Virus record (IMG/VR): IMGVR_UViG_2713896785_000007
Source: a virus
Taxonomy: Duplodnaviria > Heunggongvirae > Uroviricota > Caudoviricetes
Strand: one strand, 5' to 3'
DNA length: 13,281 bases
The notes beneath the pieces are model-generated. The model worked only from the letters and a program-made list of their open reading frames with translations, did no database searches and was not told the origin of the DNA. Made by a program: the position numbers and the translations under genes. Shown in pieces: positions 3,373 to 9,891 of the stretch; position 1 is the first letter of the stretch, and each line of letters begins with the position of its first letter.

Positions 3373-3581
3373 GCACAGAAGAAGCCAGAGAAATGATACA
3401 GCGGTACCGTGAAGCGGAAATGGCCGTACTGGAGGGAAAGTCTGTCACCTTCAACGGGCAGCAACTGACGCTGGAAAGCCTTTCTCAGATCCGCGCCGGA
3501 CGTCAGGAGTGGGAACGCAGGCTTGCCGCGATGGTGAGCCGCAGGCGGGGAAAACCGGGATTTAAACTGGCGAGGTTTTAA
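3369..3581 (+). CDS. W: Head-tail joining protein gpW-like
   Basis: C-terminus RRRGKPGF matches lambda gpW RRRGPAGF. A GTG at 3369 is preceded by AGGAGG (3356-3361), giving a ~70-aa protein equal in length to lambda W (68 aa). The longest ORF would start at the ATG at 3345. Overlaps the terminase stop at 3370-3372. Confidence 0.82.
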   Translation: MSTEEAREMIQRYREAEMAVLEGKSVTFNGQQLTLESLSQIRAGRQEWERRLAAMVSRRRGKPGFKLARF

Positions 3582-5083
3582 TGGCAATTATTGATGATGT
3601 GATCGGCGTGTTTTCCCCTAGGTGGAAAGCAGCCAGACTGCGTTCAAGGGCGTTAATCATGGCCTATGAGGCGGTGAAACCGACCCGGACACATAAAGCC
3701 CGGCGGGAAAATCGCTCTGCTGATCAGCTCAGTAAATACGGTGCGGTTTCCCTGCGGGAGCAGGCCCGTTTTCTGGATATCAATCATGACCTGGTGATTG
3801 GTGTGTTTGACAAGCTGGAAGAGCGGGTGATTGGTGCCAGGGGAATTATTGTGGAGCCTCAGCCATTACGAAAAAACGGGGAAATGGCGGCTGAGCTGGC
3901 TGCGGATATCCGCCGTTTGTGGGCTGAATGGTCCGTGAGTCCGGATGTGACAGGGCAGTATACCCGTCCTGTGCTTGAACGTTTACTGCTGCGGACCTGG
4001 CTGCGGGATGGTGAAGTGTTTGCGCAGATGGTCAGTGGTGCGGGAAACGGTCTGGAACGGACGGCGGGAGTGCCATTCTGGCTTGAGGCGATGGAGCCGG
4101 ATTTTGTTCCCATGCGCACTGATGAATCCGCCGGACTGAATCAGGGGGTTTTTCTTGATGAGTGGGGAAGACCGAAAAAATATCTGGTTTATAAAAATTA
4201 TCCGGTCAGCGGCCGGCAGAGTGATACGAAAGAAATCGCTGCCGGAAAAATGATCCACCTGAAGTTCACTCGTCGTCTGCACCAGACGCGAGGCTCATCC
4301 ATGTTATCGGGGGTGCTGATGCGGATCAGTGCCCTTAAGGAGTATGAGGATGCGGAACTGACAGCGGCGCGTATTGCTGCGGCGCTGGGACTGTATATCC
4401 GTAAAGGTGACGGACAGGACTATGAAGATCCGGGGATCAAAGAAACCGAGCGGGAAGTCCATATCACCCCGGGTATTATTTATGACGATTTGCGCAAGGG
4501 CGAGGATATCGGCATGGTCAAATCTGACCGTCCCAATCCCAACCTTGAAACTTTCCGCAACGGCCAGTTGCGTGCAGTGGCAGCAGGCAGTCGTCTGAGT
4601 TTTTCCAGTGCGGCGCGTAACTATAACGGCACCTACAGCGCCCAGCGGCAGGAGCTGGTCGAGTCCACGGATGGTTACCTGATCCTGCAGGACTGTTTTA
4701 TTGGCGCGGTAACCCGCCCGGTGTACCGGACATGGCTGAATATGGTGGTTGCGGCAGGTCTGCTGAAAATTCCGGCGGATGTGGAGATGAAAACGCTATA
4801 TAACGCGACGTATTCCGGTCCGGTGATGCCGTGGATCGACCCGGTTAAGGAAGCTGAAGCCTGGAGAATTCAGATCCGGGGTGGTGCAGCGACAGAATCT
4901 GACTGGGTGCGTGCCGGCGGGCGCAATCCGGATGAGGTCAAACGTCGCCGCAAGGCTGAAATTGATGAAAACAGCAGACTGGGGCTGGTCTTTGATACGG
5001 ATCCCGTCAACGACAAAGGAGGCAACAGTGCCGGAACTGAACGACAGTATCAGCGCGACACCGAAAGCCAGCATGAAGAATAA
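3581..5083 (+). CDS. B: Portal protein (lambda gpB family)
   Basis: 500-aa ORF in the lambda B position. Start ATG overlaps the W stop (TAATG). Shares recognisable similarity with lambda gpB, including the YEEAE/YEDAE and VxAARIAA region. Confidence 0.93.
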   Translation: MAIIDDVIGVFSPRWKAARLRSRALIMAYEAVKPTRTHKARRENRSADQLSKYGAVSLREQARFLDINHDLVIGVFDKLEERVIGARGIIVEPQPLRKNGEMAAELAADIRRLWAEWSVSPDVTGQYTRPVLERLLLRTWLRDGEVFAQMVSGAGNGLERTAGVPFWLEAMEPDFVPMRTDESAGLNQGVFLDEWGRPKKYLVYKNYPVSGRQSDTKEIAAGKMIHLKFTRRLHQTRGSSMLSGVLMRISALKEYEDAELTAARIAAALGLYIRKGDGQDYEDPGIKETEREVHITPGIIYDDLRKGEDIGMVKSDRPNPNLETFRNGQLRAVAAGSRLSFSSAARNYNGTYSAQRQELVESTDGYLILQDCFIGAVTRPVYRTWLNMVVAAGLLKIPADVEMKTLYNATYSGPVMPWIDPVKEAEAWRIQIRGGAATESDWVRAGGRNPDEVKRRRKAEIDENSRLGLVFDTDPVNDKGGNSAGTERQYQRDTESQHEE

Positions 5084-7052
5084 ATCCTGGTTCAGGATGC
5101 AGGCTGGGGTGCCGGGTGACGCGGATATTTATATTTATGACGAGATTGGTTTCTGGGGAGTTACCGCGAAGCAGTTTGTCAGCGAACTGAATGCTCTGGG
5201 TGATATCACCCACATTAATCTCCATATCAATTCACCGGGTGGCGATGTCTTTGAAGGCATCGCCATTTTTAATGCCCTGAAAAATCAGGGGGCGACCATT
5301 ACCGTGTATGTGGATGGCGTTGCCGCCTCGATGGCATCTGTGATTGCGATGGCCGGTGATACGGTCATTATGCCGGAAAATGCCTTCATGATGATCCATA
5401 AGCCATGGGGATTCAGTGGCGGGGATGCTGAGGATATGCGCAGTTATGCCGATTTGCTGGATAAAGTCGAATCGGTACTGTTGCCAGCCTATGCGCAGAA
5501 AACCGGAAAAACCACCGATGAAATTGCCGCCATGCTGGCGGATGAAACCTGGATGTCCGGTGCCGAATGTCTGGCACACGGATTTGCTGACCAGGTGACA
5601 CCCGCTGTTGAGGCAATGGCATGTATTCAGTCAAAACGTACAGAGGAATTTAAAAAGATGCCGGAATCCATCCGAAACATGATTACTCCGCCACGCAACA
5701 GTGCCCCGCGTGATACCACAGTGACAATCCCTGCACCGGCGGTAACAGAACCATCACCGGTACCGGCAGTGTCTGATGAGGCGACCATTCGCGCCCGCGT
5801 TATGGCAGAACAGAAAGCCCGCATGTCAGGCATTAACGATCTGTTTGCCATGTTCGGCGGTCGCTATCAGACGCTTCAGGCACAGTGCGTGGCTGATCCT
5901 GACTGTTCGCTGGAAATGGCCCGTGAACGACTGCTGAATGAAATGGGCAAGGAGTCCTCGCCGACCAACAAAAATACACCGGCCCATATTTATGCCGGAA
6001 ACGGCAATTTTGTGGGAGACGGGATCCGCCAGGCGATGCTGGCCCGTGCCGGATTTGAAAATGTCGAGAAGGATAACGCCTATAACGGGATGACCCTGCG
6101 TGAATGGGCTCGCATGTCACTGACGGAGCGCGGTATTGGGGTGGCCAGTTATAACCCCATGCAGATGGTCGGGCTGGCGCTGACGCACAGCACCTCTGAT
6201 TTTGGCAATATTCTGCTGGATGTGTCGAACAAGGGGCTGATCCAGGGCTGGGAGGAATCAGAAGAAACCTTCCAGAAGTGGACCCGTAAGGGACGCCTGT
6301 CAGACTTCAAAACAGCGTATCGCGTGGGGATGGGCGGTTTTGGTTCTCTGCGCCAGGTTCGTGAGGGGGCGGAGTATAAATACATCACCACCTCAGATCG
6401 CAAGGAGACCATTGCACTGGCCACTTACGGGGAGATTTTCTCCATCACCCGCCAGGCCATTATCAATGATGATCTGAATATGCTGGTGGACGTGCCGATG
6501 AAGATGGGGCGTGCGGCGAAGGCAACGATTGGTGACCTGGTCTACAAGGTGCTGACGGATAACCCGAAACTGTCCGACGGTAAGGCGCTGTTCCATGCCG
6601 ATCACAAAAATATTGCCACCGGGGGGATCTCCGTTTCCGGACTGGATGCGGCCCGTCAGATGATGCGCCTGCAGAAAGAAGGCGATCGTGCCCTGAATAT
6701 CCGTCCGGCCTTTATGCTGGTACCGGTGGCACTGGAGACGGTGGCGAACCAGACCATCAAATCGGCCAGTGTGAAAGGGGCGGATGCAAACGCCGGTGTC
6801 ATTAACCCTATCCAGAACTTTGCTGAGGTGATTGCAGAAGCGCGTCTTGATGCGGCAGACCCGAAAACCTGGTATCTGGCGGCGGCACAGGGCACTGACA
6901 CCATTGAAGTGGCCTGGCTGGATGGTGTGGACACGCCATACATTGATCAGCAGGAAGGTTTCACCACTGACGGCATTGCCACAAAAATCCGTATTGATGC
7001 CGGAGTGGCACCACTTGACTGGCGCGGGCTGGTGCGTTCGTCGGTGGCCTGA
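5028..7052 (+). CDS. Fusion protein: ClpP-like (S14) serine protease domain + linker/scaffold-like segment + HK97-fold major capsid protein domain
   Basis: Reading frame is open from 4881. Likely start is the GTG at 5028 (AAAGGAGG at 5015-5022) or the ATG at 5073. N-terminal domain carries ClpP-type catalytic motifs (GVAASMASVIAMAG with Ser nucleophile; MMIHKPWG with His). A Pro/Ala/Thr-rich linker follows (~5690-5800). C-terminal ~300 aa occupy the major capsid position. Domain call for the capsid part is by position and size, not by a motif I can name. Confidence 0.88.
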   Translation: MPELNDSISATPKASMKNKSWFRMQAGVPGDADIYIYDEIGFWGVTAKQFVSELNALGDITHINLHINSPGGDVFEGIAIFNALKNQGATITVYVDGVAASMASVIAMAGDTVIMPENAFMMIHKPWGFSGGDAEDMRSYADLLDKVESVLLPAYAQKTGKTTDEIAAMLADETWMSGAECLAHGFADQVTPAVEAMACIQSKRTEEFKKMPESIRNMITPPRNSAPRDTTVTIPAPAVTEPSPVPAVSDEATIRARVMAEQKARMSGINDLFAMFGGRYQTLQAQCVADPDCSLEMARERLLNEMGKESSPTNKNTPAHIYAGNGNFVGDGIRQAMLARAGFENVEKDNAYNGMTLREWARMSLTERGIGVASYNPMQMVGLALTHSTSDFGNILLDVSNKGLIQGWEESEETFQKWTRKGRLSDFKTAYRVGMGGFGSLRQVREGAEYKYITTSDRKETIALATYGEIFSITRQAIINDDLNMLVDVPMKMGRAAKATIGDLVYKVLTDNPKLSDGKALFHADHKNIATGGISVSGLDAARQMMRLQKEGDRALNIRPAFMLVPVALETVANQTIKSASVKGADANAGVINPIQNFAEVIAEARLDAADPKTWYLAAAQGTDTIEVAWLDGVDTPYIDQQEGFTTDGIATKIRIDAGVAPLDWRGLVRSSVA

Positions 7053-7074
7053 TAACCGCGTTATCACAATCACT

Positions 7075-7093
7075 GCCCGAAAGGGCTTTTTTT
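7075..7093 (+). terminator. Putative intrinsic terminator downstream of the capsid gene (GCCC-GAAA-GGGC stem-loop + T7)
   Basis: Short GC stem with a GAAA tetraloop followed by TTTTTTT, 23 nt after the capsid stop codon. The stem is only 4 bp, so it is probably weak or leaky. Confidence 0.4.
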
Positions 7094-7139
7094 ATGCCTG
7101 AAAAACAGCCCCACAGGGGCTGTCCGGAGAAACAGCATT

Positions 7140-7466
7140 ATGGCGAAAAATTTTGTACAGGACGGTACCACCATTGAACTGGTGAATGCCGGAGATCAGA
7201 CCATCCTGAGCGGTGCTGCGGTGGTGGTCGGCAGTATGGTGGCCGTGGCCATTACCGATATTCCTGCCGGTGAGGCCGGTGACGGTTTTGCCGAAGGCGT
7301 GTTCCTGCTGCCCAAACAGTCTGCTGACGACATTCAGTCCGGCGCGGTGGTTTATCTGAAGGACGGGGTTGTGCAGCTGGCTGCAGACGGTGCGGTGGCA
7401 GCGGGGGTAGCCTGGGAAAATGCCCCTGCAAACAGCGCCACTGTGGCGGTAAAAATCAATGTCTGA
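7140..7466 (+). CDS. Small head protein, DUF2190-like (putative head decoration/cement protein; lambda D position)
   Basis: 108-aa Gly/Ala/Val-rich ORF directly after the capsid gene, same size as lambda gpD (110 aa). Sequence character matches the DUF2190 proteins found after capsid genes in lambdoid prophages. Family call is from memory and not verified. Confidence 0.65.
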   Translation: MAKNFVQDGTTIELVNAGDQTILSGAAVVVGSMVAVAITDIPAGEAGDGFAEGVFLLPKQSADDIQSGAVVYLKDGVVQLAADGAVAAGVAWENAPANSATVAVKINV

Positions 7467-7740
7467 TCTGTTTACGCGAATGTGTTGCCGGATGGACGTG
7501 GCGACCGTTCGGGTGATGGGCAAACAGGCGGAGATTAACGGCGTCGTGTACGACGTGATGCCGGAGGAAGAGTCCGCGGAGATGGGGGCGCTTTCGGGCA
7601 GCCAGTTGTCACTGGTGGTGTTTTCAGCCCGGTACCGTCCGGCCCGTCATGATGTTGTTGTGTTTGCGGGGCGCACACTGACGGTGACCCGTTATGACAC
7701 GTACAACGGTAAACCCCGGATTTTTGTCGAACAGGAATGA
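7459..7740 (+). CDS. Head-tail connector / head completion protein (FII-like position)
   Basis: 93-aa ORF overlapping the preceding stop (ATG at 7459, TGA at 7464-7466) and the following Z start. Assignment is by synteny between the head genes and gpZ; similarity to lambda FII is weak. Confidence 0.6.
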   Translation: MSDLFTRMCCRMDVATVRVMGKQAEINGVVYDVMPEEESAEMGALSGSQLSLVVFSARYRPARHDVVVFAGRTLTVTRYDTYNGKPRIFVEQE

Positions 7741-8378: not shown

Positions 8379-8777
8379 ATGAAACACCGTGAAATACGGG
8401 CGGCAGTTCTGTCTGCCCTGAAAGAAAATATTTCTGAGAGGGTGAGCTGGTTTGACGGTCGCCCGGTTTTTATTGATGAACAGGAACTGCCTGCTGTTGC
8501 TGTTTACCTGACAGATGCGTCTGCTGCTGACGAGTTCGTTGATGAGGGAACCTGGGAGGCGACACTGCATATTGAGGTTTTTCTCAGGGCAAAAGAACCG
8601 GACTCGGCACTGGATATGTGGATGGAAGAAAAAATTCTTCCTGCGCTGGAGGCAGTTCCCGGGCTCAGTGCATTACTGCTGAAGATGAATCTTCAGGGGT
8701 ATGACTACCGCCGGGATGATGAGTTTATGATGTGGGGATCGGCAGATCTCCTGTGGAAAATTACCTACGAGATGTGA
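8379..8777 (+). CDS. U: Tail terminator protein gpU
   Basis: 132 aa. MKH.E.RAAVL.AL ... FDGRP ... PAVAVYLT ... ELHIEVFL ... GYDYRRDD ... ITYEM matches lambda gpU (131 aa) along its whole length. GGGAGGG Shine-Dalgarno upstream. Confidence 0.93.
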   Translation: MKHREIRAAVLSALKENISERVSWFDGRPVFIDEQELPAVAVYLTDASAADEFVDEGTWEATLHIEVFLRAKEPDSALDMWMEEKILPALEAVPGLSALLLKMNLQGYDYRRDDEFMMWGSADLLWKITYEM

Positions 8778-8784
8778 GGACGAT

Positions 8785-9455
8785 ATGGCAACACCAAATC
8801 CCCTTGAGCCGGTAAAAGGTGCCGGTANNNNNNNNNNNNNNNNNNNNNNNNNNNNNNNNNNNNNNNNNNNNNNNNNNNNNNNNNNNNNNNNNNNNNNNNN
8901 NNNNNNNNNACCGGGCAGGGGCAGAAGTCTGCAGGAGATACCAGTTTTACGCTGGCCTGGAAACCGGGAGAAGAAGGTCAGAAAGGGCTTATAGGCTGGT
9001 TTGAAAGTGGGGATGTGCGGGCCTATAAAATCCGTTTCCCAAATGGCACGGTGGATGTGTTCCGTGGCTGGGTCAGCAGTATCGGTAAGGCCGTGACGGC
9101 GAAAGAAGTGATCACCCGCACGGTGAAAGTCACTAACGTGGGTAAACCTTCTGTAGCGGAAGAACGCAGCAAAATTACGCCGGTCAGTGCGATTAAGGTG
9201 ACGCCGACATCCGGTACGGTGGCAAAAGGGAAAACAACCACCCTGACGGTTTCTTTTGAGCCGGAAAGTGCAACAGACAAGACGTTCAGAGCGGTTTCCG
9301 CCGATCCGTCGAAAGCCACCATTAGTGTGAAAGATATGACAATTACGGTAAACGGCGTGGCGACAGGTAAGGTGCAGATCCCTGTGGTGAGCGGAAATGG
9401 TCAGTTCGCCGCAGTGGCTGAAGTCACCGTTACTGAAGCGGGCGCTGCAGGGTAA
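8785..9455 (+). CDS. V: Major tail protein gpV (interrupted by an assembly gap at 8827-8909)
   Basis: N-terminus [14 protein letters not shown] matches lambda V MPVPNPTMPVKGAG. After the gap, [17 protein letters not shown]...[42 protein letters not shown] is near-identical to lambda V. C-terminal Ig-like (Big_2) region ends [17 protein letters not shown]. The frame changes across the N run because the gap length is arbitrary. Confidence 0.9.
8827..8909. other. Assembly gap (run of 83 N) inside gene V
   Basis: Directly visible as N characters. Confidence 0.97.
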
Positions 9456-9468
9456 ACGGAGGTAATAC

Positions 9469-9891
9469 ATGTTTCTGAAAACAGAACAATTTGAATATAA
9501 CGGTGTGTCCGTCACGCTTTCCGAATTGTCTGCGCTGCAGCGGTTTGATTATATAAAGTTTGTTTCAGACGCAGAACAACAGGAGACAACGAAGCATGAT
9601 GTCGTGCACATTAACCAGCGATATCTGGAAACGGCATCCCTGCTTGTGGCGATGTCGCTATGGCATTCCCATTCCCTCAAAGGCACTCTGGCCTCTCCGG
9701 AGACAGAGATGCAGCAGATCCGCCGTGAAGTGATGCTGGGATGGCCTGCTGATGCACTGAATCAGGCAACGAACCGGGTGCTTTATCTTTCAGGTATGCT
9801 GGATAACCGGCACGATGCCGATCCTGAACCAACCGGGAAAACAGAAGCGACTGAGCCGGTAACATCAAAAAAGCATTCGAAGGCGAGCTGA
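9469..9891 (+). CDS. G: Tail assembly chaperone gpG
   Basis: 140 aa, the same length as lambda gpG. MFLKTEQFEYNGVSVTLSELSALQR... matches lambda G MFLKTESFEHNGVTVTLSELSALQR.... GGAGG Shine-Dalgarno upstream. Confidence 0.93.
   Translation: MFLKTEQFEYNGVSVTLSELSALQRFDYIKFVSDAEQQETTKHDVVHINQRYLETASLLVAMSLWHSHSLKGTLASPETEMQQIRREVMLGWPADALNQATNRVLYLSGMLDNRHDADPEPTGKTEATEPVTSKKHSKAS
9867..9873 (+). promoter_or_regulatory. Programmed -1 ribosomal frameshift slippery heptamer A AAA AAG (G to G-T)
   Basis: The heptamer AAAAAAG sits in the X XXY YYZ register of the G frame, 5 codons before the G stop. The -1 frame is open from this point to 10226 and encodes a gpT homologue. Confidence 0.8.

Follow-up and report, generated by a model that had tools for sequence, protein, structure and literature searches.

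A protease-scaffold-capsid fusion gene of a lambdoid Escherichia coli prophage and its candidate internal translation start

The DNA analysed here, called the window throughout, is a stretch of 13,281 nucleotides from a tailed phage (Caudoviricetes; IMG/VR record IMGVR_UViG_2713896785_000007), numbered from its first letter. In its head module a single open reading frame (ORF) unites a ClpP-like protease and a stretch of scaffold with the major capsid protein; it encodes the head shell of a lambdoid E. coli prophage whose head is of the Gifsy-2 / mEp460 / Stx1-phage type. The locus raises the question of whether the full-length fusion is the only product, so that every shell subunit would bring a protease with it, or whether a protease-free shell protein is made from the same frame. 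An initial annotation of the sequence had proposed a single self-processing polyprotein. The single-ORF fusion on which that proposal was built stands, but the proposal is probably incomplete as to the sole product: a conserved internal Shine-Dalgarno (SD) sequence and ATG at codon 211 suggest additional synthesis of a scaffold-capsid protein that lacks the protease. The parts of the gene are listed below; pLDDT is the per-residue confidence (predicted local distance difference test) of the AlphaFold2 model.

5028..7052, + strand: protease-scaffold-major capsid protein fusion ORF, 674 codons plus stop, 674 amino acids, 73.1 kDa; identified by NF045540, PHROG 133 and homology to Gifsy-2 STM1034.3n.
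5016..5030, + strand: SD AAGGAGG (5016-5022), 5-nt spacer and GTG start (5028-5030) of the full-length product, within the 3' end of the portal gene.
5088..5609, + strand: ClpP-like (peptidase S14-type) prohead protease domain, residues 21-194, with Ser101, His124 and Glu173 invariant.
5610..5771, + strand: disordered Pro-rich tether, residues 195-248, pLDDT below 50, 9 prolines in 54 residues; contains the proposed internal start.
5643..5660, + strand: proposed internal translation start, GAGGA (5643-5647), 10-nt A/T-rich spacer and ATG (5658-5660, Met211); proposed from conservation, synonymous-site constraint and open mRNA.
5772..5954, + strand: helical scaffold (delta-domain-like) segment, residues 249-309, with modelled helices at 251-274, 281-289 and 295-308, pLDDT 74-88.
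5955..6008, + strand: disordered junction and putative maturation-cleavage zone, residues 310-327, linking the helical segment to the N-arm helix of the capsid domain (328-341), pLDDT below 50.
6009..7049, + strand: HK97-fold major capsid protein domain, residues 328-674, 37.8 kDa.

The annotated start and the candidate start at Met211

The fusion ORF starts at GTG 5028 and ends with the stop codon TGA (7050-7052); the stop-to-stop frame around it extends back to 4881, into the portal gene. Among 83 aligned homologues the GTG 5028 column has the strongest SD signal and anti-SD pairing of all columns of the ORF and is a start codon in 80% of the sequences, and the G-ending codons that form its SD rank second among 73 columns rich in Glu, Gln or Lys (E/Q/K). 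On this sequence evidence GTG 5028 is the most likely start of the full-length protein. ATG 5073 and ATG 5097 (mEp460 annotation) were considered for the same role and rejected, both having a weaker SD and poorer start-codon conservation than GTG 5028.

Translation from Met211 is predicted to give a protein of 464 residues and 50.5 kDa, comprising scaffold and capsid, in which a 99-residue arm (residues 211-309) lies ahead of the disordered junction. The view that the 674-residue protein is the only product, with every subunit carrying protease and scaffold in cis and processing itself, must explain the same region differently: Met211/Pro212 and the purine-rich codons before them would be a protein motif, or an SD-like pause that allows the protease to fold before the linker emerges. 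ATG occupies the Met211 column in 84 of 85 fusion ORFs that are 45-78% identical, and Met211 is the sole highly conserved methionine between residues 197 and 355. The two codons that make up the SD encode EE, ED, QE, KD, KE, GD or EN depending on the lineage, and the AGGA/GGAG core stays. Codon -5 ends in G in 78/78 sequences (GAG in 60, CAG in 13, AAG in 5). It is the only one of the 73 E/Q/K-rich columns to be at least 95% G-ending (median 0.47); the runner-up, part of the SD at the annotated start, provides a built-in positive control.

The anti-SD duplex at Met211 has an observed energy of -6.17 kcal/mol, compared to -3.80 kcal/mol after synonymous randomisation, making it 2.4 kcal/mol stronger. 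Because the pairing exceeds synonymous randomisation and codon -5 is G-ending, the SD is constrained at synonymous positions, beyond what the amino acids alone require, which counts against a single product. Three further columns, at Met137, Tyr450 and Asp648, were flagged by a plain anti-SD screen and rejected as starts, since their SD-like letters arise from conserved amino acids (GGD, REG); used as controls, they show no excess over synonymous randomisation.

The folding of the mRNA points the same way. Minimum free energies were computed in 45-nt windows and averaged over the 83 homologues at 673 positions, and all 15 of the least-structured positions fall at residues 205-221 (-3.3 to -4.5 kcal/mol compared to a mean of -9.5 kcal/mol, z about +3). 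Low mRNA structure is typical of initiation regions, and the annotated start itself ranks 23rd by this measure. That the Met211 region is the least-structured stretch of the entire ORF is a second point against a single product.

Relatives in which the region has changed provide a third and a fourth. A divergent clade has Ala and no SD at the Met211 column and carries a new "(E/Q)E(G/D)xDM" element 20-50 residues downstream, with AGAGGGA or AGAGGA 8-9 nt before the ATG; ATG and SD have thus relocated together, which is not readily accommodated by the single-product view. The unfused ClpP-like protease of Vibrio phage K283 (48% identical) lacks the motif, reading "GKAP" at this place with neither the Met nor the EE pair. 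Of 26 loci with fusions to a different N-terminal domain, 22 retain an ATG that follows AAGGA, GAGAGGAA or CAGGAG at a distance of 6-8 nt, and in Faecalibacterium phage Epona the protease and a 530-aa scaffold-capsid protein are the products of adjacent genes. Taken together, all this evidence is most simply explained if a scaffold-capsid gene that used to be separate has kept its start and still uses it.

Several observations weigh against this reading. In the window copy GAGGA and ATG are 10 nt apart, towards the upper limit of common spacings. Pro212 matches Met211 in conservation, hinting at a role for "MP" in the protein as a cleavage or docking motif, and such a role could account for part of the conservation of Met211. 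Intragenic SD-like motifs can also serve as ribosome pause sites, and the homologues are interrelated, so that counts such as 78/78 do not represent independent events. The primary Gifsy-2 paper may already back or contradict the idea of two products; it lies outside the text covered by our literature searches, within which an internal start in the fusion gene is not mentioned and the name of the fusion led to nothing of relevance. The conserved internal start is the only possibly new point made here, and it too may already be known.

We consider the single-product view unlikely, yet by no means negligible. The frame is continuous, no column has a stronger SD than the annotated start, and the invariance of Pro212 suggests a constraint at the protein level. 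A rough, uncomputed estimate of volumes also allows 415 copies of a 327-residue internal extension to fit into a T=7 procapsid. Against it stand the synonymous positions, the joint relocation of ATG and SD, the open mRNA and the unfused homologue, and we favour two products.

Domain structure, family and integrity of the fusion

The N-terminal half of the protein matches Pfam CLP_protease over residues 45-191 (E = 1e-36), the result for which the initial annotation had proposed a profile search, and it passes the equivalog-domain model NF045542, "head maturation protease, ClpP-related", with 224 bits compared to a cutoff of 120. Ser101 (5328-5330), His124 (5397-5399) and Glu173 (5544-5546) are invariant in an alignment of 56 sequences with identities down to 47%. 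Ser101 lies in AASMA (residues 99-103) and His124 in MIHKPWG (residues 121-127), two motifs that had already been recognised in the N-terminal part, and in a pairwise alignment both residues align to catalytic residues of Thermus thermophilus ClpP; Glu173 aligns with the catalytic Asp of the same enzyme. The NCBIfam models of cellular ClpP all score far under their cutoffs on the fusion protein (best NF001368, 82.5 bits compared to 249; TIGR00493, 61.5 compared to 308.6), as do the S49 SppA models (TIGR00706, 27 compared to 155). By sequence, the protease domain has the ClpP fold and active-site motifs, yet is no ClpP orthologue.

The Glu in the third position of the triad, where ClpP has Asp, and the low scores with true-ClpP models could be taken to mean that the domain is a catalytically dead relic that acts only as extra scaffold, with maturation cleavage performed by a host protease or not at all. 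This is very improbable given that Ser101 and His124 sit in canonical motifs and are invariant together with Glu173 at such divergence, and that the domain passes the head maturation protease model. In addition, Pfam-level annotation of the window genes found no second protease gene in the head module.

An AlphaFold2 model built from 56 sequences (47-84% identical to the window protein; mean pLDDT 75.9) shows a confident protease domain at residues 21-194 and a confident capsid domain at 328-674. Between them lie the tether, whose proline content agrees with the Pro-rich linker described in the initial annotation, the helical segment and the junction. In phage Epona the helical scaffold segment goes with the capsid domain, in the separate 530-aa capsid gene. 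The C-terminal part matches Pfam Phage_capsid_4 over residues 384-671 (E = 1e-55), with a weaker match to Mu-like gpT. Its modelled fold matches the phiCD508 capsid protein (13.9), encapsulins (13.8, 12.7), the Pyrococcus furiosus virus-like particle (13.5), BB3626 (13.0) and the FCWL1 capsid protein (12.4). The profile match and the resemblance of the model to HK97-fold shells together answer the earlier query of whether this domain has a capsid fold. A PDB sequence search with the fusion protein returned weak capsid matches (9jod, 5e-5; Mu gpT-domain entries, 5e-3).

The fusion as such is well known. The protein scores 1004 bits with NCBIfam NF045540, the model for the ClpP-like prohead protease/major capsid protein fusion (cutoff 475), residues 32-672 covering profile positions 2-651 of 652, and PHROG 133 matches it end to end. 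With this full-length score, a ClpP-fold protease bearing its Ser and His, an in-frame HK97-fold domain and homology and synteny with Gifsy-2, it is a member of the NF045540 family. It is 60% identical to Gifsy-2 STM1034.3n over the full length (696 aligned columns), in keeping with the initial annotation, which had linked such an architecture to some enterobacterial lambdoid prophages. Gifsy-2 reportedly has a "tripartite capsid gene", described in a study by Effantin et al. in 2010 (Virology 402:355) that is said to have used cryo-EM on Gifsy-2. At the DNA level the fusion gene is 99.8% identical to that of phage ASU11, 99.7% to VT1-Sakai, 99.2% to 1720a-02, 96.6-98.9% to other Stx-converting and related phages, and about 77% to mEp460, cdtI and Ayreon. 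Copies that are 100% identical occur in many complete E. coli genomes, where the PGAP annotation bears the exact fusion name. Matches to the gene were found in 2070 of 5426 complete E. coli genomes. A collection of 5.8 billion proteins holds thousands of relatives with both Pfam domains, and a scan of species-representative genomes gave at least 570, from which 80 loci were kept (Enterobacterales, Pseudomonas, Shewanella, Pasteurellaceae, Aeromonas and others). A passage in PMC12315714 states that the prohead protease and coat genes of Gifsy-2 are fused. The architecture is thus already established through a curated NCBI family, the Gifsy-2 study and its frequency as a prophage gene.

The initial annotation had described one ORF of about 675 residues and had raised the concern that a frameshift or stop might be hidden between its halves. 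The ORF is single and intact in the window, and it is uninterrupted in the isolated phages ASU11, 1720a-02, mEp460, cdtI and Ayreon, in 2015 complete E. coli genomes (coverage of at least 80%) and in 80 loci of different gammaproteobacterial species. That the fusion is an artefact or pseudogene, produced by a lost stop codon or by misassembly of a decaying prophage, is hardly credible: defects are common in such prophages, IS629 interrupts the VT1-Sakai copy and a 1-nt frame change adds the portal gene in some E. coli contigs, but the fusion is intact in the plaque-forming phages mEp460, cdtI, Ayreon and ASU11, its frame is kept in the 2015 genomes and across at least 80 species at 45-78% identity, and a curated NCBIfam model exists for it.

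Two variants of the gene deserve description in their own right. At least ten protein clusters from E. coli contigs (P0071-P0086) are ORFs of 1158 or 1159 aa that combine portal, protease and capsid. In these a 1-nt frame change in the portal/protease overlap, with the junction at about window 5020-5060, lets the portal read through into the fusion frame ("...DKGGSSA|QRNDRS...", compared to "...DKGGSSA|ATKRQE...*" in mEp460). In the Sakai Stx1 prophage VT1-Sakai (AP000400.1, 23239-26576) the 99.7%-identical orthologue is broken by IS629 and annotated piecemeal as "scaffolding protein", hypothetical proteins and transposase. Because of this interruption, VT1-Sakai cannot produce a capsid protein of its own.

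Neighbouring genes and other features of the window

Two genes flank the fusion directly.

3581..5083, + strand: lambda-family portal protein gene (Pfam PF05136, 2.8e-80), directly upstream, with a 56-nt overlap with the fusion ORF.
7140..7466, + strand: capsid cement/decoration protein gene, 108 aa (Pfam PF09956 Phage_cement_2, 6.6e-19), functional counterpart of lambda D.

The fusion had been proposed to stand in place of lambda C, Nu3, D and E. It does take the place of C/Nu3 and E, lying between the portal and the head-tail genes, but the claim fails for D: the cement gene is separate and directly downstream, and therefore the fusion replaces the C/Nu3 and E functions only. The product of 7140-7466 is named "capsid cement protein" by NCBI and is 54% identical to its Gifsy-2 neighbour. 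Its AlphaFold2 model (pLDDT 91) has capsid decoration chains as top Foldseek matches, the best being phiCD508 chain C (template modelling score 0.76-0.78), followed by Sf11, HFTV1, Pam3, T1 and FCWL1. These chains match over the whole length, whereas lambda gpD (1c5e) aligns over 59 columns only (E = 1.0); the protein is a functional analogue of gpD outside the gpD family. A PDB sequence search with the cement protein gave no matches. A paper citing the Gifsy-2 work counts that phage among those whose trimeric cement protein sits on the three-fold axes.

The gene order of the window is that of Gifsy-2, namely terminase, a small gene, portal, fusion, cement, a PF13856 protein and homologues of Z, U, V, G, T, H and M, and it also matches a Salmonella locus.

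Just 3' of the fusion ORF lies a hairpin, GCCC-GAAA-GGGC followed by TTTTTTT (7074-7092), and a second of 7 bp, CAGCCCC-ACA-GGGGCTG, is found at 7107-7123. The mEp460 record has a rho-independent terminator annotated at the equivalent of these hairpins (7074-7123). A simple scan for promoters and terminators on the + strand of 4800-7600 gave nothing convincing; the 7074-7092 hairpin was missed because its stem has fewer than 5 pairs. A leaky terminator after the fusion ORF could lift expression of the capsid gene over that of the genes downstream. Rfam had no matches within the window.

Further downstream, the tail-tube gene V looks split (8785-8994 and 9015-9455). A masked run of 82 N (8828-8909) lies within it and also lowers the apparent GC content of 8501-9000. 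Close relatives carry 82 nt more at the masked run, which would restore an intact gene V of 753 nt, and we rejected a broken tail-tube gene at 8785-9455 as an apparent break due to the N run. The gpG-like chaperone gene (9469-9891) has a -1 slippery heptamer, A AAA AAG, in its zero frame at 9867-9873, 16 nt before its stop, and a gpT-like ORF (Pfam Phage_tail_T) goes on in the -1 frame, as expected of the G-T tail-chaperone frameshift. The lambda slippery site GGGAAAG is not present in the G-T region of the window; the site there is a different one. At the other end, positions 1-775 have a lower GC content (0.44-0.46) and short ORFs on both strands without a Pfam match, followed by the gene for a DUF1441 protein (776-1252) in the position of a small terminase. 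The cos site may lie in this stretch, or the lysis module may finish there.

Two proposed products from one frame

Starting from the observed domain identities and folds, family membership, gene order, conserved active-site residues and separate cement gene, we regard as probable, and as the best explanation, a four-part head-shell gene from which two products of one frame co-assemble and undergo maturation cleavage. With a little more reserve, we think it likely that the gene is a nested pair, in which the internal 464-aa protein of delta arm and capsid would be the bulk subunit and the full-length protein a minor one whose capsid domain addresses a fixed number of proteases into the shell. 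The 73-kDa protein would be made from GTG 5028 and the 50.5-kDa protein from the GAGGA-N10-ATG of Met211, so that a minor protease-scaffold-capsid protein would stand beside a scaffold-capsid protein in the manner of lambda C and Nu3. The two would co-assemble via their shared capsid domain, and through the full-length copies a restricted set of proteases would enter the procapsid, tethered inside it by the disordered residues 195-248. Once the shell has assembled, the protease would cut itself off along with tether and scaffold arm, probably within the 310-327 junction, and the mature shell protein that remains would be about 38-40 kDa. Expansion and the binding of cement-protein trimers would follow on the Gifsy-2 pattern.

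Comparison with known heads places this proposal. The Gifsy-2 gene has the same three-part layout at 60% full-length identity and shares the internal "EEFxxMP" element. The neighbours are common to both as well, with a lambda-family portal upstream and the cement protein (54%), the PF13856 protein and gpZ/U/V/G/T homologues downstream. There is no difference in kind: the window gene is the E. coli allele, of the type of Shiga toxin-producing strains, and the cryo-EM was on Gifsy-2.

With lambda the window gene shares its position in the late operon, amid lambda-family terminase, portal and tail genes, and a trimer-type decoration protein downstream, and the nested logic of C/Nu3 would be common to both if the Met211 start is real. 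The differences lie in the proteins. E is a separate gene in lambda, whereas the window capsid is in frame with protease and scaffold. The lambda protease is of the S49 type and that of the window S14-like. Unlike the lambda one, the window capsid domain belongs to the Phage_capsid_4 / Mu gpT type, and the window cement protein is a member of PF09956, in contrast to the gpD family, with a structural overlap of the two limited to 59 columns.

HK97 gp5 has a layout like that of the proposed internal product, a 99-residue, largely helical arm followed by an HK97-fold domain; the HK97 delta domain comprises 102 residues. Neither HK97, with gp4 and gp5, nor the window phage has a separate scaffold gene. 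The HK97 protease, however, is of the HK97/herpesvirus type, whereas the window protease is ClpP-like and fused upstream in frame, and the HK97 shell is held by chainmail cross-links where that of the window phage, by analogy with Gifsy-2, is probably stabilised by cement.

In-frame internal starts have been demonstrated experimentally in UL26/UL26.5 of herpes simplex virus 1 (HSV-1) and gp17/gp17.5 of Haloferax virus HFTV1, nested genes that yield an abundant scaffold product and a rarer full-length protease product (bioRxiv 10.64898/2026.09.13.751334). In HSV-1 and HFTV1 the shared C-terminal part is scaffold only, whereas in the window gene, with its candidate start, it would be scaffold plus shell protein. 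The shared C-terminus of lambda C/Nu3 and of UL26/UL26.5 brings the protease into the procapsid, and we propose an analogous job for the window capsid domain.

The fusions with a different N-terminal domain are of the NF045541 type, named "prohead protease/major capsid protein fusion" and exemplified by Ralstonia phage YO135_4. Their scaffold-capsid module is homologous to that of the window gene (33% identity over residues 204-668), and, as in the window, they have a cement gene downstream and an internal ATG with SD. Their N-terminal domain of about 225 residues has no Pfam match and is unrelated to ClpP by sequence (locus L003, 1844-3937; IMG/VR loci L091-L119). The window protein itself falls outside this family, scoring 418 bits compared to a cutoff of 525, with only residues 213-671 aligned.

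If the internal start is real, it would account for how a phage with a fusion of protease and shell protein escapes having 415 proteases per head. The annotation of thousands of prophages, Shiga-toxin phages included, would then need a name for one more product, and the principle of lambda C/Nu3 and UL26/UL26.5 would be extended to a shared capsid protein, across two unrelated protease fusions.

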